This document shows positions 23,893-60,255 of a DNA stretch of 64,000 nucleotides, one piece after another. This DNA is from Bacteroidetes bacterium UBA7674 (GTDB taxonomy: Bacteria; Bacteroidota; Bacteroidia; Chitinophagales; Chitinophagaceae). A program made the position numbers and the translations under genes. The stretch is from assembly GCA_002483105.1 (NCBI GenBank), contig DLHG01000011.1, forward strand, positions 190,497-254,496. The letters are read 5' to 3'. The notes under the pieces are model-generated. The model worked only from the letters and a program-made list of their open reading frames with translations. It was not told the origin of the DNA and made no database searches. Each line of letters begins with the position of its first letter. The first letter of the stretch is position 1.

Positions 23893-23966
23893 GGCGAGGT
23901 AGCTCAGTTGGTTAGAGCACAGGATTCATAACCCTGAGGTCGGGAGTTCAAATCTCCTCCTCGCTA
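23893..23966 (+). tRNA. tRNA with CAU anticodon (elongator Met; Ile2/lysidine type not excluded)
   Basis: Hand-folded cloverleaf: GGCGAGG/TA/GCTC-AGTTGGTTA-GAGC/A/CAGGA-TTCATAA-CCCTG/AGGTC/GGGAG-TTCAAAT-CTCCT/CCTCGCT/A; CCA not encoded. Confidence 0.85.
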
Positions 23967-23972
23967 CACAGA

Positions 23973-34685: not shown

Positions 34686-35813
34686 ATGGACAAATCAGAA
34701 ATTAGATTTCTCAAGCAGAAAGATTATAAGTTTATTAAAGAGCTGAGCAGAGGGGGCTTTGGCGAAGCGATTTTAATAAATGATGAAACTATAGGCGAGG
34801 ATTTCGTTTGTAAGAAATATTCGCCGTTTTATGAAGAAGATAAAGAAGTATACTACAAAAATTTTGTTCAAGAGATTAAACTATTACATTTATTAAACCA
34901 CAGAAATATTGTTAGAGTTTTTAACTATTATTTATACCCTGAAAAATCTACTGGTTATATTTTGATGGAATATATTAATGGCTCATCAATCGACAAATTT
35001 CTTCAGAATAATCCTGACAAAATAAAAGACGTCTTTCTGGAAACAATAAATGGTTTTCAGCATTTAGAAGGGCTTCAAATACTCCATAGAGACATACGAC
35101 CTCAGAATATTTTGGTGACTGATCAAGGTATACCAAAAATCATAGATTTCGGCTTCGGTAAACAGATGCAATTCCTAGAAGAAGATTTCGGAAATAGTAT
35201 TAGCTTAAATTGGAGATACACTCCGCCTTCCGAATTTTCGCTAAAAGTTTATGATTATAAAACTGAAGTTTATTTTGTAGGAAAGTTATTTGAGGAGATA
35301 ATTAATGAAAATCAATTGCCGGCTTTCCCATATGCGTCGGCTATTCGTAAGATGATTGCTCATAACTATGATGAGAGACTTTCTTCATTCCTTGATGTTA
35401 GTCGAGAGATTTCGACTGTTGATTCGACCGAAGTTTCATTTAGTTACATGGATAAGTATGCATACCAACAGTTTGCCGAAAATTTAAGTAAGATCATCGC
35501 TAGCATGGATGAAAATTGTCAGTACAATTCAGACGTTGATGATATAAATCAGAAACTACAAACTGTTTATAATAATTCATTGCTAGAAGAATATCTGCAA
35601 AATAGTGCCGCCTTATTGCGATGTTTTTTAAAGGGTACTTATAAGTATTACAACTCAAAAACATTTCCAATTAGTACATTGCGAGATTTTGTTATACTTT
35701 TTAAGAATACGCCTAAAGATCTTCAAAAAATTATTTTGAATAATATTTGGCTTAGGTTCGACTCAATAGGTAGGACCTCAAAAGTATCTAGTGCTGATGA
35801 TTTACCATTTTAA
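34686..35813 (+). CDS. Hanks-type Ser/Thr protein kinase with uncharacterised C-terminal domain
   Basis: 375 aa; Gly-loop SRGGFGEA, FVCKK lysine, QEIKLL Glu, HRDIRPQN (HRD at 35085-35093), DFG (35145-35153), YTPPSE; about 140 C-terminal aa with no motif I recognise; AT-rich. Confidence 0.75.
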   Translation: MDKSEIRFLKQKDYKFIKELSRGGFGEAILINDETIGEDFVCKKYSPFYEEDKEVYYKNFVQEIKLLHLLNHRNIVRVFNYYLYPEKSTGYILMEYINGSSIDKFLQNNPDKIKDVFLETINGFQHLEGLQILHRDIRPQNILVTDQGIPKIIDFGFGKQMQFLEEDFGNSISLNWRYTPPSEFSLKVYDYKTEVYFVGKLFEEIINENQLPAFPYASAIRKMIAHNYDERLSSFLDVSREISTVDSTEVSFSYMDKYAYQQFAENLSKIIASMDENCQYNSDVDDINQKLQTVYNNSLLEEYLQNSAALLRCFLKGTYKYYNSKTFPISTLRDFVILFKNTPKDLQKIILNNIWLRFDSIGRTSKVSSADDLPF

Positions 35814-35844
35814 TACATACGCCGGAGTTGCCTTAAATCTGTTT

Positions 35845-36576
35845 TTAAGTAGGATGTATTGAGTTAATAAAATACTGCATTGTATTTTCTTCATAATAGA
35901 AAATTGAATGTAGACGTTGGTTATTATATAAGGTATAGCTTTGGTCAGATATCTTTATGTTTCGCTGGTGATTAACAGTAGTACGTTTCGAGATAAAAAA
36001 AGCGTTAATTGTTACGTCAATAATATCTCTGGGGTGCATCAAATTGTTTTTCGTCGGTTGAGTTGACAAAGGGATGTCAGAATATGAGAAGTGTTTAAAG
36101 GCATGAAAAACTCCGCCCGTAAATACAGATTTTCTAGAGTCTCTCTTCTCTATGTCAATTTTTCTAAATAATTCCATTCGAAGAGCATCGCCAATCACCT
36201 CGCCATCCTCTACTTCGAAAATGTATGCAACCTTATCTCTAGATAGAAAATTTCCAAAGGAATCGAGATTAAACATTGGGTCAGGGTTGATATCATAGAG
36301 CGCTTTCAATACGCTGTAGGCATTATATTTTCCGAAACAATCCGGATGTTCTTTTACGGCCAATATTAATACGTTCTCAATAATTTCAATAAAAATTCTT
36401 GAAGGTGCTACTATGAATTTTCTGTCTCCGATAAATACAGGATAGTAGTAACCCACAAAATCACCTGCCAGGTAATGACTTCTCTTTTCGTGTACTCCCA
36501 GTTTTGACGCTTTCACTTCGAAATTTCTTCTAATTGAAAGAATCTCTTGTTGAGAGATATTAGGGATGATTATCAC
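35845..36576 (-). CDS. hypothetical protein (no recognisable domain)
   Basis: 243-aa ORF, AT-rich, no signal peptide or TM; convergent with the kinase (31 nt between stops). Confidence 0.45.
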   Translation of the reverse strand: MIIIPNISQQEILSIRRNFEVKASKLGVHEKRSHYLAGDFVGYYYPVFIGDRKFIVAPSRIFIEIIENVLILAVKEHPDCFGKYNAYSVLKALYDINPDPMFNLDSFGNFLSRDKVAYIFEVEDGEVIGDALRMELFRKIDIEKRDSRKSVFTGGVFHAFKHFSYSDIPLSTQPTKNNLMHPRDIIDVTINAFFISKRTTVNHQRNIKISDQSYTLYNNQRLHSIFYYEENTMQYFINSIHPT

Positions 36577-36672
36577 AAATAATTATTTGATTGTTATTAG
36601 TGCTTTTTTCCAGTAGTTCAATTTATCCCGCGTCGTATGGCGTATTGAGATGCAAAAAAAATGATACGTATA

Positions 36673-37569
36673 TTACTCCTCGGTAATTGTCGTTTCGTTA
36701 TCCTTCACAATAACAAATAATATTGGCAACCCCTCCGCATCTTGTATTTCTACTGAGTAATTCTCATGTTCCTGAAAACTGTTAAATAGATTTAGAACAT
36801 TAATTAATGCACTACCTCTAGTTATTGAACTAGGGATTTTACCACTACCTATATTCAGTAAGTCATGGACTATGCAATTCCAATTGGTATCTCCTTGGTT
36901 AGCAGTTGTAAAGGGTAATCCCATGTCACCATTTAGCATTCGGGCTAAAAAAACTCCCCATGTAGAACTAATGCCGTTGCTCCATGGCACAAACCTCAAT
37001 CGCGGACTAGGGTTTATTACTAAATAGTGAAGGGCTTTCGGTCTCCCTTGACTATAATCAGGAAAATGTCGAAGCGGAGATGGTGTTATGGAGTTTCCGT
37101 AGATAGTAGCGGGCATATCGAAAGAAATGTCGCTGTCATATAAACACTTTTGCGATTGTGATGTAAGTTGTTCATCCATTTTGGCCTGTGCTAAAACGGC
37201 ACTGCGATAGATGGGCTTTTTATTTGCATCAAGTAGGCAGAATATTACCATCATATCTCCCAGTTCGCAAGCGGGAGTATCGCCTGTGCAATTTCTTACA
37301 GAATTTACTGTTCGTTGAACACGGGGTTTCTGGTGAATATATACAGATGCGAACTTTACCTCGTATCCACCACCACTTAGTAATGGCGACAAGTTTCTAT
37401 TTAGATAGTCAACACCAACACTTCTGTCAAGTAGGTAACTTCTTACGATTTGAGGTTCTGAGCGATTAGTATTGATGCCGTTCCAAGAGCTATCTCCAAT
37501 TGAAATTATATTTCCCCATTGAGCTTGGATATGTCTAATAAATTTGTCAAATTCTGGAGTCATGGTCAT
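36673..37569 (-). CDS. hypothetical protein, possible PD-(D/E)xK-like core
   Basis: 298-aa ORF; CELGDMMVIFCLL ... AVLAQAKM (E102, D105, Q128-x-K130; nt 37180-37266) fits D...(E/Q)xK spacing; weak. Confidence 0.45.
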   Translation of the reverse strand: MTMTPEFDKFIRHIQAQWGNIISIGDSSWNGINTNRSEPQIVRSYLLDRSVGVDYLNRNLSPLLSGGGYEVKFASVYIHQKPRVQRTVNSVRNCTGDTPACELGDMMVIFCLLDANKKPIYRSAVLAQAKMDEQLTSQSQKCLYDSDISFDMPATIYGNSITPSPLRHFPDYSQGRPKALHYLVINPSPRLRFVPWSNGISSTWGVFLARMLNGDMGLPFTTANQGDTNWNCIVHDLLNIGSGKIPSSITRGSALINVLNLFNSFQEHENYSVEIQDAEGLPILFVIVKDNETTITEE

Positions 37570-50278: not shown

Positions 50279-50833
50279 ATGTTTAAATTGACAACACACA
50301 TGGTGTCGAGCCTGGATGGCTTTGTCGCGAAGAAGGACAATAGCATTTCCTGGTTTGAAACAAACAGTTATTACGACAAGGGTATTGAACTTTCACGCGA
50401 AGACAGTGAGAAGTTCCTGAGCGAAATAGATTGCTATGTAATGGGAGCAAGAACCTATGAACTTGCCCTGGAGCTTTCAAAAACTCATGGCTGGGCATAC
50501 GGCAATACACCGACTATTGTAATGAGTCATAGCGACCTGCCTATCGACAGGGACAATATAGAACTATATTCAGGCGACCCGGCAAGACTTGTGGATGAGC
50601 GGCTAAAGCCGAACTATAAGCATGTATGGCTGGCAGGCGGACCAATGCTGGCGAGAGACTTTATTCGTTTGAAGTTGGTTGATGAGATAAGGCTTTCTAT
50701 TCTTCCGATCATCCTTGGTGACGGAGTTCCGTTTTTTGATCGTATAGAACAGGAGCAATTATTGGAATTGATAGATGTGACCGCTTACAAAAACGGAATG
50801 GTGGAACTTTGTTACCGGGTGAAAAGGGATTAA
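50279..50833 (+). CDS. dihydrofolate reductase family protein (RibD C-terminal domain type)
   Basis: 184 aa; MVSSLDGFVA ... MGARTYE ... WLAGGPMLA ... LLPIILGDG pattern. Confidence 0.75.
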   Translation: MFKLTTHMVSSLDGFVAKKDNSISWFETNSYYDKGIELSREDSEKFLSEIDCYVMGARTYELALELSKTHGWAYGNTPTIVMSHSDLPIDRDNIELYSGDPARLVDERLKPNYKHVWLAGGPMLARDFIRLKLVDEIRLSILPIILGDGVPFFDRIEQEQLLELIDVTAYKNGMVELCYRVKRD

Positions 50834-52235: not shown

Positions 52236-52838
52236 TTATCCGTCAGATAAAGCATCAGCATACCCTTTTCTTATCTGAGCTATCCTTCGTCTTTTGTTCG
52301 GGTGAGTTTCACTATCGTAGTCAGAACCAATAATAGACATTGCAGCAGTTGCAGATCGTTCAGACGCGCCTAATTTTTGAAGGATGTATCCGCTCCAATA
52401 GTCTGCTGACAATTCTCTTTGATGAGCATCACCCCTAAAATTACTGATATGATGTCCCAGTTCATGAGCTATGATTGATATTGCAGCCCATCTTGTATCG
52501 CACATTTCATTTACACGACTGCAAAATCCAACATCTACCAATAGTAGCCGTTCTCCACTTGGATACATCCATGCTTCAGCATTGTTTTGGCCAACATACA
52601 CCATTAGCCGTAAATTCATACGTTTACTTACAGCCTCCAGACTACGCCTGACAATTTCCGGTATGCCTGTATCGTCTTTCTGTTTAGATATGATCTCTTC
52701 AACGTCTAAGGACCGGCCATCCGGTGACTTTATTTTCCACCCTCCATTGATCCCATAGCTGCAATTGTGAGTTCTCTGAGCAATCGATACACCTGTAAAG
52801 TGCATGACGATCAGAAGTGTTAGAACTGTTCTAGTCAT
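52236..52838 (-). CDS. secreted zincin-like metallopeptidase (HExxH)
   Basis: 200 aa; signal peptide; IIAHELGHHISN zinc-binding motif followed by RELSADYWSG. Confidence 0.5.
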   Translation of the reverse strand: MTRTVLTLLIVMHFTGVSIAQRTHNCSYGINGGWKIKSPDGRSLDVEEIISKQKDDTGIPEIVRRSLEAVSKRMNLRLMVYVGQNNAEAWMYPSGERLLLVDVGFCSRVNEMCDTRWAAISIIAHELGHHISNFRGDAHQRELSADYWSGYILQKLGASERSATAAMSIIGSDYDSETHPNKRRRIAQIRKGYADALSDG

Positions 52839-52871: not shown

Positions 52872-53309
52872 CTACCTGGCTTGCCAGCCTGTCGCATCTG
52901 TTGGTATTTGCAGTGTGACTTTTTTTCTGCCATTGCCTGCATCTGCTATGTCTTCTTCCAGATCTTCAATTTCATCGACATCCATTTCTGGAGCCTGGCG
53001 ATCATGAATTTGCCTGGTAGGCGCCGGCTTGTGTGTGGGCTGTATACTTGCACATTGGTATGCAATTGTGTTATACCATTGATTTACATAGTTGCATTGC
53101 TGGAAATACCAGTAGTTTAAGTTGTTCAGGCAATAGGCCCAATTAAAGCCACAATAACTTCCGGCGTTGGTATAATAGTGGTAATACATCTGGTTAACCC
53201 CTTGTGCATAATGCTGTAGTTGCATCACCGCATTAGAGCAAGAGGTCTGGGCGGTTGAATTGGAATTCAGTATTAACAGTAGGCTGAAAAATGAAATGAC
53301 CCTTTTCAT
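52872..53309 (-). CDS. hypothetical secreted Cys/Tyr/Trp/Asn-rich protein with acidic tail
   Basis: 145 aa; signal peptide; 6 Cys and many YY/WY pairs; EMDVDEIEDLEEDIAD segment; 33 nt upstream of the metallopeptidase gene. Confidence 0.4.
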   Translation of the reverse strand: MKRVISFFSLLLILNSNSTAQTSCSNAVMQLQHYAQGVNQMYYHYYTNAGSYCGFNWAYCLNNLNYWYFQQCNYVNQWYNTIAYQCASIQPTHKPAPTRQIHDRQAPEMDVDEIEDLEEDIADAGNGRKKVTLQIPTDATGWQAR

Positions 53310-53659: not shown

Positions 53660-53763
53660 GTAGTGGCATCGATTGAGCTTCAGGCTAATTGCTAACGAGC
53701 ACAGCCCTGCGTTGTATTTGTTTGGTTTAGGTTACGCTGACGCTAAACTTAAACCAGTGGGGG
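53660..53763 (+). repeat. repeat module Z; also the likely terminator of the minus-strand defence-like operon
   Basis: Matches 51843-51946; ends 2 nt before the stop codon (53765-53767) of the CBS-HEPN gene. Confidence 0.8.
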
Positions 53764-53764
53764 A

Positions 53765-54808
53765 TTATTTGGTTTTTACTTTTAAGGTCGCTGTTATCGT
53801 ATTTAGAAATGAGACAGTTTGGCGCAAAAGATCAAGGTCTTGTGATGTGATTCCGTCGGGATCAAAATGCATAACATCATTTCGTATTTTTCTCACTTCT
53901 TCTAATTGTTTTGCAATAAGTGTCCTGTCAATATTTAACTTTAATTTTTCAAACTTTTTGGGATCTTCAATTATCCTAACATACTGTCCGAATGTTAGGT
54001 CTGCTAGGTTCTTTATCTCCTTAGTTTTCTCAATATTCGACATTGAAGCATTTAGTTCTTCAGCGTCAAATTTTTGATCGAAGAGTTTTCTGATATGATT
54101 TTCAATTTGTTCAATTATTAGAAACGGTTCTGCCATTGCAATAAATTGTTCTCCAATATCAGTGATAGTTACAATGCCACTTATAGTCTTATCTTTCTGT
54201 CTAACAAGAACAACTTCTTTGTCTAATACAAACTTCACTGCGCTGAACAAAGGCTCATCGTAATTTAAAATTATAACCTCGTCTTTACAGTCTACTGCTT
54301 TAACACAATGTTTGCCTAGGGAAATTGCCCTGCCGATTGATTTCCAGCTAACTATTCCATCTACCTCTCGTTGCCCTGATAGTATTGGCAATTGAGAGAA
54401 ATCGTGCAATAACATTAAGGTAATAGCCTCGTTTAAAGATGTTTCACGATTAATGCTTATGAGGCCTGTTCCCAAGCCAGTTTCCTTCACTTTATTGATA
54501 TTCGCTGCCTTTAATAGACTTATTCGGGGAGTCGGATCTCTATCCTCAAATTCACTTTCTTTACTTTTCGTCGATAGCTTTGGGCGAGGTTTTATTTCGA
54601 TTTCTCCATAAAACCATGCACTTGCAATATCTGGCTCGCTTACAACGTCATACTTATTAAGTAGAAAGTTTATTTTGTCAATTACTTTCCACCCACGTCT
54701 AGCAACTCCTAAATATGCAGTTGCTATATAGGGATAAGTCGTAATTGATTTTTTAGTTTTATGAACTTCACTTAATATCTCTTCGAAATTTAGCTTGTTG
54801 TCACTCAT
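53765..54808 (-). CDS. CBS-pair protein with C-terminal HEPN (Rx4H) domain
   Basis: 347 aa; CBS1 LISINRETSLNEAITLMLLHDFSQLPIL...VDGIVS, CBS2 VIILNYDEPLFSAVKFVL...ISGIVTITDI; C-terminal EEVRKIRNDVMHFD, with R309-N-D-V-M-H314 at nt 53867-53884. Confidence 0.65.
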   Translation of the reverse strand: MSDNKLNFEEILSEVHKTKKSITTYPYIATAYLGVARRGWKVIDKINFLLNKYDVVSEPDIASAWFYGEIEIKPRPKLSTKSKESEFEDRDPTPRISLLKAANINKVKETGLGTGLISINRETSLNEAITLMLLHDFSQLPILSGQREVDGIVSWKSIGRAISLGKHCVKAVDCKDEVIILNYDEPLFSAVKFVLDKEVVLVRQKDKTISGIVTITDIGEQFIAMAEPFLIIEQIENHIRKLFDQKFDAEELNASMSNIEKTKEIKNLADLTFGQYVRIIEDPKKFEKLKLNIDRTLIAKQLEEVRKIRNDVMHFDPDGITSQDLDLLRQTVSFLNTITATLKVKTK

Positions 54809-54843: not shown

Positions 54844-55413
54844 TTATATATTTGCTGAAACAAACTCATATAATCCTGAAAATGACTTACACTTTGTTTT
54901 TACTGTATTTAGGTTTAAGTTCTTAGCAAGCACCGTATTATGCTTTGTATTAATGTACACTTTGGAATTATCTGAAAAGGTTCTAATAAGTCGTCCTAAA
55001 GTTTCTTTTGGGGAATCTATTGTTTCGGGATTCCCAGTGATTTTGGGACTTTTTTTAAGGTTAAATGATTTTTTGATGGAAGCTGGGTCAGCCAGTATCC
55101 AAGCTTCCATCTCCTGTATAGGAATGCATATGTAGGAATGTCTGATCGGATTAGGTTTTATATTTTTTTCAAGTAATAGTTTCAGATCCTGGATATTATT
55201 GCTGTCGAGGTCATGAATTAATATTAAAACGTTACATCCTCTTAGTTGTAATTGTTTTGCCCAATCTGAACATTTTCTTTTGATTTTCCCGCAACCTCTA
55301 CCTACAAATCTTTTATAACTAAGATTAGACTTGCCAGTAATTCTCGCGATAAGCTCTTTTAGTGTATCTACGTCACTTTCATCTTCAGCGATAATGCCTA
55401 TTTTTTTACTCAT
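54844..55413 (-). CDS. DUF4276-like, TOPRIM-fold-like protein
   Basis: ORF trimmed to Met12 (ATG 55411-55413), 189 aa; IGIIAEDESD (Glu), NVLILIHDLDSN (DxD), IPIQEMEAWILAD; start overlaps the ATPase stop (ATGAGTAA). Confidence 0.6.
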   Translation of the reverse strand: MSKKIGIIAEDESDVDTLKELIARITGKSNLSYKRFVGRGCGKIKRKCSDWAKQLQLRGCNVLILIHDLDSNNIQDLKLLLEKNIKPNPIRHSYICIPIQEMEAWILADPASIKKSFNLKKSPKITGNPETIDSPKETLGRLIRTFSDNSKVYINTKHNTVLAKNLNLNTVKTKCKSFSGLYEFVSANI

Positions 55414-56635
55414 TCTCAAAACCTCCTTCCTTCCAATATTCACCAAGATTTCCAGATTCTGTTAAATAGATTTTCAATGCTTGATAATCATTCTTTGACA
55501 GAGCAGTTGTCAATTTTGAGGCAGTAGTTCCTTTGCCTTTTTCTTTTTTTACAATTACAATATTCTCTGGAGATAATTTATCTAATACAAAATCCGAGTG
55601 CGTACTTATTATTATTTGTTTATTTTCATTGTCAAGTATTAAGCTTAATACACTATTGAGCAGACCATGATGAACACAGACTTCTGGTTCTTCTATTAAA
55701 AGGATTCTGTTTTCGTCTGTTAGAATATAAAAAACTAAGGCAAGGGTTTTGAATGTGCCTTCTGATAATTGATTTGGAGACAATAAATACCCATCGATAT
55801 CTATACATGGTACAATTATCTGTCTGCTTCTTTCTATCTTAAGAATTTTCCCTCCAGACTTAACTTTATAACTATTAGAAGGAATATCTACCTCATCGAA
55901 TCGAAGGTCATTAATCAAACCAATGCCATTTGTGTTAACCGTTGAAATGAATTTTTCAAAAGTTTTTTTATTATTCTTATATGTAAAGTATAAATCACTT
56001 AAAAATATCTCGTGAGTTGAGCTTCGTAAATTAGATCGCCCAAGACGATGGTCTTCAATTTCGATTGATATTGGACACTTCGTAGGGTCTGAGAACTGAC
56101 TTGCGCTATAATAACTTTGATGTTTTAAATATTTAACTACGGAGATAATAATCTTGATGTCATCTCTAGTACAGTCGATTTGTCTAGTATCATAATAGAA
56201 GAAAATTCTCTCATTTATTTGTCTAGGATGATGTCTGTACAATTCAAACGCTTCAGGGATAATATCAATCCATTTTCCATTACCATTTATATTTCTAAGA
56301 TTAATTTTTAAAAATGAAGCCTTCACTTCGTCATTATTCTTGTCGTCTGTTTCAATAAAAATGTCACCTTTTATATATATATCTTTACCATTGTCATTAA
56401 GTGTCATTTGAATATTCGTACTAGTTTCAAATCCATATTGTTTCCTGAATTCTTTAATAGAACGCGAATATCGATCCCCTCGAGTCTTCTTAAATAATTG
56501 TAGTGCATTTAAAATATTGCTTTTGCCTACTCCATTTATCCCTATTAGGCATGTGAGTTTGGGATTTAAATCAAATTTAGTTTTCAAGCATGACCTATAA
56601 TTGTCAACTTGGAATTTTGTTATTCTCATTTTCAA
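55406..56635 (-). CDS. ABC/SMC/RecF-like ATPase (AAA_15/AAA_21 type)
   Basis: 409 aa; Walker A GINGVGKS (56519-56542), LSEGTFK signature-like, Walker B ILLIEEPE, H-loop ISTHSD; no TM segment. Confidence 0.8.
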   Translation of the reverse strand: MKMRITKFQVDNYRSCLKTKFDLNPKLTCLIGINGVGKSNILNALQLFKKTRGDRYSRSIKEFRKQYGFETSTNIQMTLNDNGKDIYIKGDIFIETDDKNNDEVKASFLKINLRNINGNGKWIDIIPEAFELYRHHPRQINERIFFYYDTRQIDCTRDDIKIIISVVKYLKHQSYYSASQFSDPTKCPISIEIEDHRLGRSNLRSSTHEIFLSDLYFTYKNNKKTFEKFISTVNTNGIGLINDLRFDEVDIPSNSYKVKSGGKILKIERSRQIIVPCIDIDGYLLSPNQLSEGTFKTLALVFYILTDENRILLIEEPEVCVHHGLLNSVLSLILDNENKQIIISTHSDFVLDKLSPENIVIVKKEKGKGTTASKLTTALSKNDYQALKIYLTESGNLGEYWKEGGFENE

Positions 56636-56746: not shown

Positions 56747-56775
56747 CGCCTTATTTTTAGCTTTGGGTGAGGTCT

Positions 56776-59700
56776 ATGTTGGATAAATATAAGGAATACA
56801 AGCAGTTAAGCATGCCGGCCATAGAAAAGGAGATCCTTGATCTGTGGAAGGAAACAAAAGCATTTGAAAAGAGTGTCAGCCAGAGAGAGGGGGCAGTGCC
56901 GTTCGTATTTTATGAAGGTCCGCCCAGTGCTAATGGTATGCCCGGCATTCACCACGTAATTTCCCGCACATTAAAGGACCTTGTCTGCCGTTACAAAACG
57001 ATGCAGGGTTACCAGGTAAAGCGTAAGGCTGGTTGGGATACCCATGGCCTGCCGGTAGAGCTGGGTGTGGAAAAGGAATTGGGCATCACGAAGGAAGATA
57101 TAGGCATCAAAATAAGTGTAGAGGACTATAACAAGAAGTGCCGTGAAGTGGTGATGCGCTACAAGGATAAGTGGGAAGAGATCACTGAGAAGATGGGGTA
57201 TTGGGTGGATATGACAGACCCGTACATCACTTTCGATAATAAATATATAGAAACACTGTGGTGGGCGCTGAAGCAGCTTTATGATAAGGACTACTTATAT
57301 AAGAGCGTCAGCATACAACCTTATTCGCCTGCTGCGGGCACAGGGCTGAGCAGCCATGAGCTGAATCAGCCGGGTACTTATAAGGATGTGAAGGATACTA
57401 CGGTGGTGGCGATGTTTGAGTTGAGCAAGATCAGCGGACAGTCGCACAACCAGTTGCAGATAGCCATACATGATATAGCGATCAAGGCATGGGCACCATA
57501 TGTGCAGCAGCCGATAGGTGGGGGTATGGCATCTGCCGAAGAAGCCGGCAGGGTACACTTTATGGCCTGGACGACCACTCCGTGGACGTTACCGAGCAAC
57601 TGCGGACTGACCGTAGGTCCGAACATAGACTACGTACTGGTGCAGACGTTCAACCCTTATACGCATAAGCCTGCGAATGTGATATTGGCCAAGCCGCTGC
57701 TGGGTAAATACTTTAAACCGGAAGGGGAGCATGCCGACTTCAGTATATATACTGCTGAGGAGAAGGTGTTGCCATGGAAGATACTGGCTGAATATAAAGG
57801 TAAGGACCTTGAAGGGCTCAGGTATGAGCAACTGATACCAACCGAAGGTAATACCCGCGAGATAGCCGGTGGTGATCCGTGGAGAGTGATAACGGGTGAC
57901 TTCGTGACGACTGAAGATGGTACGGGTATCGTGCATACTGCACCGGCCTTTGGTGCGGATGACTATAAGGTGGGCAAGAAAGCCAACATCGGGATACTGG
58001 TGATGGTGGACAAAGAGGGCAAGTTCATAGACTATATGAGCGAGTTCAGCGGCAGGTATGTAAAGAATTATAAGAACGATACGGAATATAAAGACGTGGA
58101 CGTGGATATAGCCGTGAAGCTGAAGCTAAGCGGTAATGCCTTTAAAGTAGAGAAATACGAACACACCTATCCGCACTGCTGGAGAACGGATAAGCCGATC
58201 ATATACTATCCGCTGGATGCGTGGTTCATACGTACCACGGCAGTGAAGGACAGGATGATAGAGCTGAACAAGACCATCAACTGGAAGCCTAAGGCGACAG
58301 GAGAGGGTAGGTTTGGTAACTGGCTGGAGAACATGGTGGACTGGAACCTGAGCCGTAGCCGCTTCTGGGGAACGCCGTTGCCTGTATGGGTGAGTGAAGA
58401 TGGTAGTGAAGTAAAATGCATCGGCTCGATAGAAGAACTGATGGATGAGGTGAAGAAAGCCAATAAGGAATTACACCTGAACCAGCTGCTGGATGATGAA
58501 TACCACAAGAGTGAAGGACTGAAAGTAGTAGAGAAGCTGACAATGGGCCTGATACATGATAAACATGTGCCGAGCCAGTTGGACCTGCATAAGCCATTCG
58601 TTGACCAGATAATACTGGTGAGCGATAGCGGTAAGCCGATGCATCGTGAGCCGGACCTGGTGGATGTATGGTTTGATAGTGGCGCAATGCCCTATGCGCA
58701 GCTGCACTACCCGTTCGAGAACAAAGGACAGTTGAAATATAATTTCCCTGCTGACTTCATAGCCGAAGGCGTGGATCAGACGAGGGGATGGTTCTATACG
58801 CTGCATGCACTGGGTGTGATGTTGTTTGATAACGTTGCCTATAAGACGGTTGTCTCTAATGGCCTTGTTCTGGATAAGAACGGGAACAAGATGAGTAAGC
58901 GTGTGGGCAATGTGGTAGATCCGTTTGAAACACTGGAAAAATACAGCGCTGATGCAACGAGGTGGTACCTCATCACCAATGCTTCTCCGTGGGATAGCCT
59001 GAAGTTTGACCTGGAAGGTATAAAGGAAGTGCAGCGTAAGTACTTCGGTACTTTATATAATACTTATCAATTCTTCGCGTTGTATGCTAACGTGGATAAG
59101 TTCACCTTTAAAGAAAGGTATATCCCGGTACATAAACGTCCGGAGATAGACAGGTGGATACTTTCTTCGCTGCATACATTGGTGAAAGATGTGACCAAAT
59201 ACATGGACGACTATGAGCCTACACAGGCGGGTAGGGCCATGGAGTACTTCCTGGATGAGCACCTGAGTAACTGGTATGTAAGGCTTTGCCGCCGCCGGTT
59301 CTGGAAAGGAGAATATGAGCATGATAAGATATGTGCGTATCAAACGTTATATGAATGTTTGGAAACACTGACCCTGTTGATGGCCCCGATAGCTCCGTTC
59401 TTCTCTGACTGGATGTATAAAAACCTGAATTCGGTGACCCACCGTCTGCCGGGTAATGCATCCGTTCACCTGGCAGATTTCCCGGCTGTGGATGAGAGTG
59501 TGATAGATACCGAGCTTGAAGAAAGGATGCAAATGGCACAGGATATATCCTCGCTGGTACTGTCCATCAGGAAGAAAGTGAACATACGTGTAAGACAACC
59601 CCTACAGAAGATATTGATACCCGTAATGGACAAACACATGCGGGAGCAGATACAGAAAATAGAGGAGCTGATAAAGAACGAGGTGAATGTAAAGCAATTC

Positions 59701-60255
59701 GAGTATCTTACTGAAACAGAAGGATTTATAAAGAAGAAGCTAAAGCCGAACTTCAAATCTTTAGGTGCCCGTATGGGAGCTAAGATGAAGTCGGTAGCAG
59801 CGGCAATAACGCTTCTGGATCAGCACCAGATAACCGAGTTGGAAAATGACAAAGGTTATGTGTTGACCGTTGATGGCGAGGCAATAAGCATCAGCCTGGA
59901 AGACGTAGATATAATAGCTGAAGATATACCGGGATGGAGTGTGGCCAATAAGGACAGCCTGACCGTTGCGCTTGATATAACCATCAGCCCTGAACTGCAA
60001 GATGAAGGCAATGCAAGAGAGCTGGTGAATCGTATACAAAAAATACGTAAAGAGAGCGGATTGGAGCTTACGGACAGAATTAATGTAAAGATACAGGAGT
60101 ATGAACCTTTAAAATCTGCAATTATTAATTTTGGTGATTATATTTGCGCGGAAATTTTAGCTGATAACATACAGATTACGAACAATTTAATAGAAGGGAC
60201 AGAGATAGAAGTAAATGAAGCAAATTTAAAAGTGTTAATAAATAAAACTCCCTAA
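56776..60255 (+). CDS. ileS: isoleucine--tRNA ligase
   Basis: Track ORF starts at GTG 56767; ATG at 56776 preferred; class I HIGH-type PSANGMPGIHHV, KMSKS-type KMSKRVGN, editing (CP1) domain, about 1160 aa type-2 IleRS length. Confidence 0.95.
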   Translation: MLDKYKEYKQLSMPAIEKEILDLWKETKAFEKSVSQREGAVPFVFYEGPPSANGMPGIHHVISRTLKDLVCRYKTMQGYQVKRKAGWDTHGLPVELGVEKELGITKEDIGIKISVEDYNKKCREVVMRYKDKWEEITEKMGYWVDMTDPYITFDNKYIETLWWALKQLYDKDYLYKSVSIQPYSPAAGTGLSSHELNQPGTYKDVKDTTVVAMFELSKISGQSHNQLQIAIHDIAIKAWAPYVQQPIGGGMASAEEAGRVHFMAWTTTPWTLPSNCGLTVGPNIDYVLVQTFNPYTHKPANVILAKPLLGKYFKPEGEHADFSIYTAEEKVLPWKILAEYKGKDLEGLRYEQLIPTEGNTREIAGGDPWRVITGDFVTTEDGTGIVHTAPAFGADDYKVGKKANIGILVMVDKEGKFIDYMSEFSGRYVKNYKNDTEYKDVDVDIAVKLKLSGNAFKVEKYEHTYPHCWRTDKPIIYYPLDAWFIRTTAVKDRMIELNKTINWKPKATGEGRFGNWLENMVDWNLSRSRFWGTPLPVWVSEDGSEVKCIGSIEELMDEVKKANKELHLNQLLDDEYHKSEGLKVVEKLTMGLIHDKHVPSQLDLHKPFVDQIILVSDSGKPMHREPDLVDVWFDSGAMPYAQLHYPFENKGQLKYNFPADFIAEGVDQTRGWFYTLHALGVMLFDNVAYKTVVSNGLVLDKNGNKMSKRVGNVVDPFETLEKYSADATRWYLITNASPWDSLKFDLEGIKEVQRKYFGTLYNTYQFFALYANVDKFTFKERYIPVHKRPEIDRWILSSLHTLVKDVTKYMDDYEPTQAGRAMEYFLDEHLSNWYVRLCRRRFWKGEYEHDKICAYQTLYECLETLTLLMAPIAPFFSDWMYKNLNSVTHRLPGNASVHLADFPAVDESVIDTELEERMQMAQDISSLVLSIRKKVNIRVRQPLQKILIPVMDKHMREQIQKIEELIKNEVNVKQFEYLTETEGFIKKKLKPNFKSLGARMGAKMKSVAAAITLLDQHQITELENDKGYVLTVDGEAISISLEDVDIIAEDIPGWSVANKDSLTVALDITISPELQDEGNARELVNRIQKIRKESGLELTDRINVKIQEYEPLKSAIINFGDYICAEILADNIQITNNLIEGTEIEVNEANLKVLINKTP

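Follow-up and report, generated by a model that had tools for sequence, protein, structure and literature searches.

A nucleotide sensor is fused to a HEPN RNase that presumably works as a dimer in the CARF/SAVED-HEPN effectors (Csm6/Csx1 type) of type III CRISPR and CBASS and in RNase L, a 2-5A-activated KEN/HEPN dimer. For CBS-HEPN fusions, ligand-responsive RNA degradation was proposed in 2013 by Anantharaman et al. (PMC3710099). The same work defined the HEPN active site by an Rx4-6H motif lying where core helix 3 ends and the loop to helix 4 begins; the R is directly followed by a polar residue (N/D/H), and an upstream E-x3-[KR] motif supplements the site (PMC3710099). The closest described system is DS-11, a one-protein CBS+HEPN anti-phage system that was validated in E. 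coli (DefensePredictor; bioRxiv 10.1101/2025.01.08.631726; Science 2026, PMC13092281). E. coli DS-11 gives phage protection when cloned singly, and defense is lost in each of the Y157A, R330A, and H335A mutants, with Y157 predicted to contact adenine within the CBS domain; an AF3 dimer model with ATP has been published, as has an HHpred search in which aa 252-359 matched HEPN_Swt1 with a probability of 0.98 (PMC13092281). A domain N-terminal to the CBS pair is absent from the published description (PMC13092281).

Within the window, by which we mean the whole 64,000-nucleotide stretch of DNA analyzed here, we identified a complete ORF of 347 aa at 53765..54808 (-), with a single ATG start and the stop codon included, so the gene reported in the earlier note is real (Table 1). 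Two ORFs on the + strand inside this conserved gene, 53673-54077 and 54453-54611, were taken to be chance ORFs. The NCBIfam equivalog model NF053863 "DS11_antiphage" (CBS domain-containing anti-phage protein) has a cut-off of 260 bits, which the protein passed with 360.6 bits (E 6e-108), the match spanning aa 31-335 of the protein and positions 5-305 of the 305 in the profile. BLASTP against E. coli DS-11 (WP_000257686.1) gave 35% identity and 57% positives (E 2e-72) in an alignment that was collinear from end to end, aa 3-340 against 4-361. The E. coli sequence used (L084:8992-10089) was identical to the one in the supplement of the paper, and Y157 was confirmed in it. All 3 essential DS-11 residues had a counterpart in this alignment, with Y157, R330, and H335 aligning with F137, R309, and H314, respectively. 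The window protein is almost certainly a DS-11 family member; the gene belongs to a published family and is not a new discovery. In the 2023 release of PADLOC, which is without a DS-11 model, no model matched the target better than E 0.03.

Table 1. Coordinates of the gene, its predicted domains and motifs, and the 2 adjacent genes, numbered along the window
Feature	Position	Strand	Basis
Gene assigned to the DS-11 family (N-terminal domain, linker, CBS pair, Swt1-like HEPN)	53765..54808	-	ORF list, NF053863, BLASTP
N-terminal domain, aa 1-75	54584..54808	-	AF2, conservation
Linker, aa 76-90, variable, basic/acidic, probably disordered	54539..54583	-	AF2 pLDDT, homologue lengths
Pre-CBS motif DPTPRISLLKAAN, aa 91-103	54500..54538	-	conservation
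CBS pair (Bateman module), aa 112-222, predicted adenosyl-ligand sensor and dimerization module	54143..54475	-	Pfam, PDB sequences, Foldseek
F137, counterpart of E. coli DS-11 Y157	54398..54400	-	pairwise alignment
G211-I-V-T214-I-T-D217 in CBS2	54158..54178	-	conservation
Swt1-like HEPN domain, aa 223-347, predicted metal-independent RNase	53768..54142	-	AF2, profile similarity
E236-N-H-I-R240, E-x3-[KR] motif	54089..54103	-	conservation, HEPN definition
R309-N-D-V-M-H314, Rx4H motif	53867..53884	-	conservation, alignment to DS-11 R330/H335
DUF4276 protein	54844-55446	-	ORF list
AAA_15/AAA_21 ATPase	55406-56635	-	ORF list

The window protein and E. coli DS-11 share the N-terminal domain, the CBS pair, and the C-terminal Swt1-like HEPN domain, together with the catalytic R/H, the Ex3R motif, and an aromatic residue at the Y157 position, and both are single genes without a conserved partner. 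They differ in that the window protein has F, not Y, at the adenine-contact position, is only 35% identical, and has a shorter linker after the N-terminal domain (347 against 365 aa in total); further, its gene lies in a Bacteroidota host, an origin deduced from the closest homologues, and directly downstream of a HEC-01-like pair. A role in anti-phage defense in its own host, argued by analogy with the tested but distant DS-11 of E. coli, is likely.

We analyzed the CBS pair, the ligand site, and their conservation in 151 diverse family representatives (clusters at 50% identity). Both CBS repeats lay where the earlier note had placed them, with the Pfam CBS model (PF00571) matching in 2 stretches at 39.1 bits against 24 (E 9.5e-10) and Foldseek agreeing; GIVS corresponded to aa 151-154 and GIVTITDI to aa 211-218 of the 347-aa protein. 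PDB sequence matches for aa 112-222 were CBS-pair proteins, and the AF2 model matched solved CBS pairs with E of about 1e-7 and a target-normalized TM of 0.7-0.79, the matched structures carrying AMP, ATP, SAM, or c-di-AMP. The adenosyl-site signature G-h-h-[ST]-x-x-[DN] was present in CBS2, where G211 was conserved in 150/151 representatives and T214 and D217 in 149/151 each, and the column of F137 held F or Y in 147/151. G-h-h-T-x-x-D in CBS2 is what we take to be the ribose-contacting signature of adenosyl-binding CBS sites. In CBS1, S157 stands in place of the D or N of the signature, so each protomer probably has 1 canonical adenosyl site, as judged from the sequence. Structurally, aa 112-222 came closest to stand-alone CBS-pair receptors (c-di-AMP-binding CbpB/DarB, MJ0100, and CorC/CNNM modules), which likewise have the ribose-binding signature in 1 CBS repeat; these control partner proteins or transporters, whereas the output of the window protein would be a fused nuclease.

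The C-terminal region (aa 215-345) was all-helical when modeled alone (pLDDT 87.8, pTM 0.83). RNDVMH was located at R309-H314, nt 53867-53884, exactly as claimed in the earlier note, within EEVRKIRNDVMHFD (aa 303-316). A protein of 347 aa can be expected to contain an Rx4H motif without significance, and R309 and H314 are meaningful through their conservation, each being retained in 150/151 representatives, along with N310 in 149/151 and both E236 and R240 in 151/151. An RN[DE][VI]MH-type motif was found in 264 of the 267 retrieved proteins; a second Rx6H at aa 160-167 was not conserved. In the predicted structure, R309-H314 closes the penultimate long helix (295-313), after which come a loop and helix 322-345; the Rx4H motif with its polar N after the R, its position in the helix, and the Ex3R motif all fit the HEPN definition. 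The consensus of the 151 C-terminal domains matched Pfam HEPN_Swt1 (PF18731, clan KNTase_C) over profile positions 19-112 of 115 with E 8.2e-6; its 26.5 bits fell 1 bit short of the gathering threshold of 27.5, and the window protein alone gave E 0.026 and 15.2 bits, far below that threshold. Weak sub-threshold matches to HEPN_Swt1 were identified in 25 of 49 diverse members, and the commonest non-HEPN family, SH3_16, in 7 of 49. The comparison with known HEPN folds that the earlier note had suggested brought back no HEPN structure from the PDB or BFVD when Foldseek was run with the C-terminal domain (best E 0.27, TM about 0.2-0.4); the full-length model matched only CBS pairs in the PDB, and the C-terminal sequence profile found nothing among PDB sequences. 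TM in the C-terminal Foldseek search was poor for every match, and for this reason we do not take the result as a refutation of the HEPN fold. The assignment as a predicted HEPN domain is supported by motifs, profile similarity, and the published mutagenesis, with no structural match.

Upstream of the CBS pair, the first ~110 aa had been described as having no assignable motif, which held as far as Pfam and PDB matches are concerned, but aa 1-75 form a conserved and confidently modeled domain. The pLDDT was about 79-91 over aa 11-60, and the predicted elements were H8-18, E22-24, H26-33, H40-52, E55-58, and E70-74; this H-E-H-H-E-E order resembles a winged helix in the model, a likeness drawn from the order of helices and strands only. 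Of the representatives, 136/151 had an N-terminal domain of 55 aa or more, with R38 conserved in 134/151 and P59 in 139/151, R38-G39 preceding the third helix. The N-terminal domain had no Pfam or PDB sequence match, its profile gave chance-level matches against the PDB, and Pfam searches with 41 N-terminal domains returned no consistent family, DUF7187 being found in 6/41 with a best E of 0.0037. Residues 78-90 had a pLDDT below 50 and belong to the linker, whose length differs among homologues and where most of the extra residues or gaps relative to E. coli DS-11 fall; the basic segment PRPKLSTKSKESEFEDRDPTPR pointed out in the earlier note spans aa 74-95. The pre-CBS motif that follows was conserved at D91 (122/151), R95 (126/151), L99 (140/151), and A102 (140/151). 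The conserved N-terminal domain and the anti-phage role had been overlooked in the earlier note.

The window protein is best explained as a stand-alone, single-protein anti-phage effector, a Bacteroidota member of DS-11, a reading that we consider likely; the ligand-gated HEPN RNase mechanism that goes with it is held with less assurance, being somewhat better than an even prospect. The CBS pair would make the protein a dimer, and in each CBS pair F137 and the ribose motif G211-T214-D217 would hold an adenine-containing ligand. Whether this site is occupied, or how its occupancy changes during infection, would set the relative placement of the 2 Swt1-like HEPN domains, whose R309-N310-x3-H314 motifs, with E236 and R240, would together make up a composite RNase site that needs no metal. 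Cleavage of host and/or phage RNA there would stop phage multiplication, probably at the cost of the infected cell. We infer the dimer-based gating, the RNase chemistry, the identity of the ligand, the abortive-infection outcome, and any role of the N-terminal domain. The control of a HEPN RNase by a CBS-sensed nucleotide, put forward in the earlier note, is supported, since it agrees with the published account of the orthologous DS-11, and the essential residues are aligned. The Y157A defect may reflect destabilization of the protein instead of loss of a regulatory ligand.

We searched the neighborhood of the window gene and of its homologues. GC content around the gene is low (0.32-0.35 vs about 0.44), and the ATPase and DUF4276 genes lie on the same strand; these 2 share 41 nt, and the start of the CBS-HEPN gene is only 35 nt away from DUF4276. 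In PADLOC, the ATPase matched HEC-01A (E 3e-24) and the DUF4276 protein HEC-01B (E 3e-14), and the CBS-HEPN protein matched no HEC-01 component; we regard the 2 genes as most likely a candidate system of their own, HEC-01-like, that shares the low-GC island with the CBS-HEPN gene. Co-transcription of all 3 genes in this genome is possible. Scans for promoters and terminators gave no more sites than shuffled sequence did, and the sigma-70 consensus is inappropriate for Bacteroidota, so these scans do not bear on co-transcription. The family is patchy but wide: at E<=1e-30 it comprised 549 representative clusters, and more than 358 genome loci were spread over many phyla. Immediate neighbors of the homologues included type I R-M specificity subunits, TIR, AAA_15, HipA, AbiJ, GmrSD, and transposases, and some homologues sat between housekeeping genes. 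No homologue was identified in 50,697 phage records, which says nothing either way on defense.

The arrangement of the 3 genes raises the question of whether the CBS-HEPN protein is the third component of a system in which the ATPase and DUF4276 would, for example, sense infection and release or consume the nucleotide read by the CBS pair. The shared strand and short spacing agree with this, as do the position of all 3 genes in 1 low-GC block, the finding of no terminator-like site between the pair and the CBS-HEPN gene on the - strand, and the same gene order on 3 metagenome contigs. These contigs carry a 100% identical protein, however, and represent the same lineage, so they are no independent evidence. 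Relatives of the ATPase or of DUF4276 were found at 0/80 homologous loci from other genomes, no conserved partner gene was identified, and no neighbor family occurred in more than 3 of 82 loci; further, the ATPase and DUF4276 already form a self-contained 2-gene candidate, HEC-01A/B, in PADLOC, and for E. coli DS-11, cloning the one gene is enough for protection. Such a system is very improbable, and since the linkage is not conserved, a 3-gene operon system was set aside as the main explanation. A housekeeping or stress role, in which a sensor of metabolic state tunes bulk RNA stability with the adenylate pool and has no dedicated phage role, is how CBS-HEPN fusions were read in 2013 (PMC3710099). 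It is consistent with the AMP, ATP, SAM, or c-di-AMP bound by solved CBS pairs and with the metabolic genes that flank some homologues (such as FBP aldolase, TctC, and a cytidylyltransferase), but phage protection by the E. coli orthologue needs the very residues that are aligned here, and the curated equivalog model that the window protein passes is named for an anti-phage function. The low-GC island with its other candidate defense pair, the patchy distribution, and the recurring defense and mobile neighbors without conserved context also argue against such a regulator, and we regard it as quite improbable.

The N-terminal domain offers another way to switch the nuclease, with the CBS pair serving as a constitutive, nucleotide-stabilized dimer scaffold and the winged-helix-like domain sensing phage nucleic acid or protein. 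Many single-protein defense effectors carry a dedicated N- or C-terminal sensor, and the confident AF2 model of this domain, its presence in 136/151 representatives, and the conserved R38 and P59 fit that pattern; the Y157A loss would be equally explained by misfolding or a lost dimer, and ATP, which is always abundant, would make a poor infection signal alone. In haloarchaeal relatives, however, the N-terminal domain is missing while the CBS pair and a HEPN domain whose Ex3R and RNxxxH motifs are intact have been retained, so the CBS-HEPN core stands as a functional unit by itself. The adenosyl-site residues are also as conserved as the catalytic ones, and no similarity of the N-terminal domain to a known nucleic-acid-binding family was found in Pfam or PDB sequences. 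We consider switching by the N-terminal domain unlikely, and distinctly unlikely a 2-input switch in which that domain would be the phage sensor and the CBS pair the nucleotide license, possibly wired to the ATPase/DUF4276 pair. The preferred reading remains a single protein in which the CBS ligand would gate the HEPN nuclease.

Compared with the other fusions, this effector resembles the CARF/SAVED-HEPN proteins and RNase L in logic only, a small-nucleotide sensor fused to a HEPN RNase, whereas the sensor here is a CBS pair and not CARF, SAVED, or an ankyrin/pseudokinase; no match to CARF or SAVED was identified in the target protein with Pfam, PADLOC, or NCBIfam. No cyclase or Cas10 gene was present within 4 kb on either side, and none recurs beside the homologues. 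The ligand of the CBS pair may be an ordinary metabolite instead of a dedicated second messenger. The HEPN-MNT and other HEPN toxin-antitoxin pairs share the Rx4H toxin-type RNase domain and the location in defense or mobile islands, but the window gene is without an adjacent or conserved nucleotidyltransferase or antitoxin, and its control would presumably be intrinsic, through the CBS pair. A HEPN toxin-antitoxin pair was rejected, there being no antitoxin-like neighbor. The CBS-HEPN and CBS-HD-HEPN fusions of Anantharaman et al. 2013 (alr3009 and gi 118580987; PMC3710099) have the intact Rx4H, the polar residue after the R, and the CBS domains in common with the window protein, and control of RNA degradation by a CBS-sensed ligand was likewise proposed for them. 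Compared by description, the HD domain of the CBS-HD-HEPN fusions is missing from the window protein, and the role of the fusions was framed as signaling and RNA stability, not phage defense (PMC3710099).

The idea of a nucleotide-gated HEPN protein is already known, having been proposed in 2013 and given genetic backing in 2025/26, and the family already has its curated model at NCBI and a member validated in E. coli, which leaves the gene little discovery value. PGAP uses NF053863, so the gene should be labeled "CBS domain-containing anti-phage protein." The mechanistic questions that matter are which adenine derivative is read, whether as a metabolite reporting a phage-induced metabolic disturbance or as a dedicated signal, which RNAs are the targets, and what the N-terminal domain does. 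With 35% identity and its key residues intact, the Bacteroidota orthologue is a useful second test case for the mechanism and helps to map the truly invariant residues of the family: E236, R240, R309, N310, H314, T214, and D217.

We identified the CBS-HEPN protein as a member of DS-11, a published single-protein anti-phage family, and of the Swt1-like HEPN group. Judged by sequence, the decisive pointer to its identity is the match to the NCBIfam equivalog model NF053863.1 ('DS11_antiphage', CBS domain-containing anti-phage protein), which spans aa 31-335 and scores 360.6 bits (E 6e-108) against a curated cut-off of 260 bits. The finding is thus already known, DS-11 having been published in the DefensePredictor study (bioRxiv 10.1101/2025.01.08.631726; Science 2026, PMC13092281), and CBS fusions in the Swt1-like HEPN group, with the same ligand-responsive hypothesis, were described in 2013 (PMC3710099). 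No subsequent biochemical study of CBS-HEPN defence proteins turned up in the literature search.

The validated E. coli member, WP_000257686.1 (365 aa, sequence printed in the DefensePredictor supplement), requires Y157, R330, and H335 for phage protection (PMC13092281). An AlphaFold3 model of two DS-11 protomers with two ATP gave ipTM values of 0.59 (protomer-protomer) and 0.88 (protomer-ATP), a contact with the adenine base was predicted for the CBS residue Y157, and defence was lost in Y157A and in HEPN catalytic-residue mutants (PMC13092281). We recovered an identical ORF from the plasmid collection in E. coli KE47 (NZ_CP141089.1, L084:8992-10089) and confirmed the 3 residues in it; by BLASTP, the window protein is 35% identical to it (E 2e-72) and collinear over window protein aa 3-340, with F137, R309, and H314 aligned to Y157, R330, and H335, respectively. 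The KE47 gene carries no annotation, on a 4.9-Mb replicon filed as 'plasmid', and the ORF before it (L084:7958-8638) looks by eye like a tyrosine-recombinase fragment, which would fit a mobile island.

Within the window protein, the strings quoted in the earlier note all lie where it placed them, and we observed the domain layout that it had proposed. The ORF has no Met within its first 60 residues besides the start. A CBS pair was detected by Pfam in two stretches (E 9.5e-10), and the central part of an AlphaFold2 model (27 homologues as input, mean pLDDT 82.5) resembled solved CBS pairs with AMP, ATP, SAM, or c-di-AMP (Foldseek E about 1e-7, target-normalised TM 0.7-0.79). The C-terminal domain, aa 215-345, was all-helical, as the note had described it (isolated-domain model, pLDDT 87.8, pTM 0.83).

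All 4 published HEPN-defining features (PMC3710099) fit this domain by motifs and model: R309-N-x3-H314 ends helix 295-313 ahead of helix 322-345, E236-x3-R240 is invariant in the 151 representatives, and an insert with short helices occupies aa 244-294. HHpred on DS-11 had assigned HEPN_Swt1 (PF18731) to aa 252-359 with probability 0.98, and also HEPN_SAV2148 (PMC13092281 supplement). The window sequence alone matched HEPN_Swt1 at E 0.026 (Pfam); among 49 diverse family C-terminal domains, 25 matched this family (best E 0.0015), with HEPN_RiboL-PSP (5), HEPN_STY4199 (2), and HEPN_Cthe2314 (1) also found, and SH3_16 (7) the commonest non-HEPN family. An HMM consensus of 151 C-terminal domains matched HEPN_Swt1 at E 8.2e-6 (26.5 bits, one bit under the gathering score) over profile positions 19-112 of 115, the next family reaching E 0.05. 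Foldseek, the check proposed in the earlier note, returned no HEPN structure for the isolated domain from PDB or BFVD (best E 0.27 and 0.56), every match superimposing poorly, so that this check did not confirm the fold; the domain's sequence profile had no match in PDB. The combined evidence of motifs, profiles, and published mutants supports the assignment to Swt1-like HEPN well.

A word-indexed protein search retrieved 2210 relatives (E<=0.001), the nearest (50-75% identical) in Bacteroidota, among them Puia, Mucilaginibacter, Flavobacterium, and Sphingobacteriales; an exhaustive search of 1.84 billion representatives gave 549 cluster representatives at E<=1e-30. A scan that took a single genome from each species confirmed no fewer than 358 loci, in Bacteroidota, Alpha-, Beta-, and Gammaproteobacteria, Verrucomicrobiota, Acidobacteriota, Chloroflexota, Cyanobacteria, Actinomycetota, Planctomycetota, and others. 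Residue conservation was counted over the query plus 150 retrieved sequences that share 32-69% identity with it, and the R/H pair proved conserved across homologues. A bare Rx4H string is not significant at this protein size, and the significance of R309/H314 therefore lies in its conservation; Rx4H occurred within the last 90 residues of 264 of 267 retrieved proteins, most commonly as RNDVMH (188) or RNEVMH (31). An additional R-x6-H at 160-167 is not conserved.

Window features and conserved residues of the CBS-HEPN protein (counts are out of 151 representatives)
Feature	Position	Strand	Details
CBS-HEPN ORF	53765-54808	-	347 aa, one ATG start
RNDVMH (R309-H314)	53867-53884	-	coordinates checked
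N-terminal domain	54584-54808	-	aa 1-75
DUF4276 protein	54844-55446	-	200 aa; directly upstream of CBS-HEPN ORF; HEC-01B, E 3e-14 (PADLOC)
AAA_15/AAA_21 ATPase	55406-56635	-	409 aa; upstream of CBS-HEPN ORF; HEC-01A, E 3e-24 (PADLOC)
ileS	56767-60255		abuts low-GC block
Asn/Tyr/Gln-rich protein	52872-53309	-	145 aa; downstream; faint lipoprotein-signal match at start
Protein with weak Peptidase_M48-like C-terminus	52236-52838	-	200 aa; downstream; E 2e-5
RibD_C protein	50279-50833	+	dihydrofolate-reductase-like
Ser/Thr protein kinase	34686-35813	+	Pkinase E 9e-31
ORF	35845-36576	-	no Pfam match
ORF	36673-37569	-	no Pfam match
tRNA-Met (CAT)	23893-23967	+	sole RNA gene detected in window; far from island
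Position 137	aa 137		F or Y in 147
G211	aa 211		G in 150; GIVTITD strand
T214	aa 214		T in 149; GIVTITD strand
D217	aa 217		D in 149; GIVTITD strand
E236	aa 236		E in 151
R240	aa 240		R in 151
R309	aa 309		R in 150
N310	aa 310		N in 149
H314	aa 314		H in 150

GC content drops to 0.32-0.35 in the block at 54-57 kb that holds the gene, vs about 0.44 elsewhere. Another low-GC stretch, 34686-37569 (0.33-0.36 at 35-37 kb), holds the kinase gene and 2 further ORFs and may be another acquired island. RibD_C proteins lie 1.5-3 kb from DS-11 homologues in the window, E. coli (L084:11664-12203), and a Mariniphaga MAG (L065:9404-9922), probably by coincidence, since this holds in only 3 of 82 loci. The ATPase and DUF4276 proteins of the window match the two halves of HEC-01A/B, a candidate defence system in PADLOC, and the former has further similarity to the ATPases AbiLi, AriA, Old, and GajA.

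The protein could instead be part of a three-gene system: the ATPase and DUF4276 genes overlap by 41 nt, 35 nt separate the latter from the start of the CBS-HEPN gene, and the same gene order recurs on 3 metagenome contigs that encode an identical CBS-HEPN protein and come from the same lineage. Relatives of the ATPase or the DUF4276 protein were absent from 80 homologous loci of other genomes, and when 889 called ORFs from 82 loci were clustered all against all, no neighbour family was shared by more than 3 loci. The protein thus stands alone, as reported for DS-11, and the simplest reading of the pair is that of a second system sharing the island. A role as a metabolic RNA-stability regulator is a further rival. 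The 100 immediate neighbours of homologues mix ordinary metabolic genes with defence or mobile ones (among them type I R-M specificity subunits, TIR_2, AAA_15/21, HipA_C, AbiJ_NTD3, GmrSD_N, Type ISP domain, IS110 and DDE transposases), and the E. coli orthologue protects against phage.

The most likely mechanism is a CBS-gated HEPN RNase, as the earlier note had proposed, a reading that DS-11 membership and the orthologue mutants support. The protein would dimerise via its CBS pairs, with one canonical adenosyl site per protomer (F137, T214, and D217); CBS1 probably has no canonical site, because S157 replaces the ribose-binding acid. Ligand occupancy would set HEPN-HEPN geometry so that two Rx4H motifs form the active RNase site, and RNA cleavage would block phage multiplication; the gating by dimer geometry, the RNase chemistry, the nature of the ligand, and an outcome of cell death or dormancy are our inferences. 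The parallel that the note drew with CARF/SAVED-HEPN effectors holds in logic, as does one with RNase L; unlike CARF/SAVED-HEPN effectors, the protein has neither a CARF or SAVED domain nor a linked signal synthase, and it is therefore not in those families or that of RNase L. Alternatively, the N-terminal domain could be the sensor and the CBS pair structural only. This domain, omitted from the published DS-11 description, is confidently modelled by AlphaFold2 as helix-strand-helix-helix-strand-strand, an order that would be that of a winged helix; it occurs in 136 of 151 representatives, with R38 (134/151), P59 (139/151), and an RRG turn conserved, and has no detectable relatives in Pfam or PDB.

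A haloarchaeal plasmid protein of 255 aa (Halobaculum sp. XH14, NZ_CP134950.1, L085:3001-3768) combines a CBS pair and HEPN with intact E-x3-R and RNxxxH motifs (EPFLQIGEIEESLR, RNALLHF). An ImmA/IrrE peptidase gene adjoins it, and plasmids of Haloarcula, Halorubrum, Halomicrobium, and Natronococcus gave comparable matches. Its lack of the DS-11 N-terminal domain suggests that the shorter CBS-HEPN core is an older family in archaea and that the domain was added in the bacterial DS-11 clade. The residual value of the window protein lies in the questions of its ligand, its RNA target, and this N-terminal domain.
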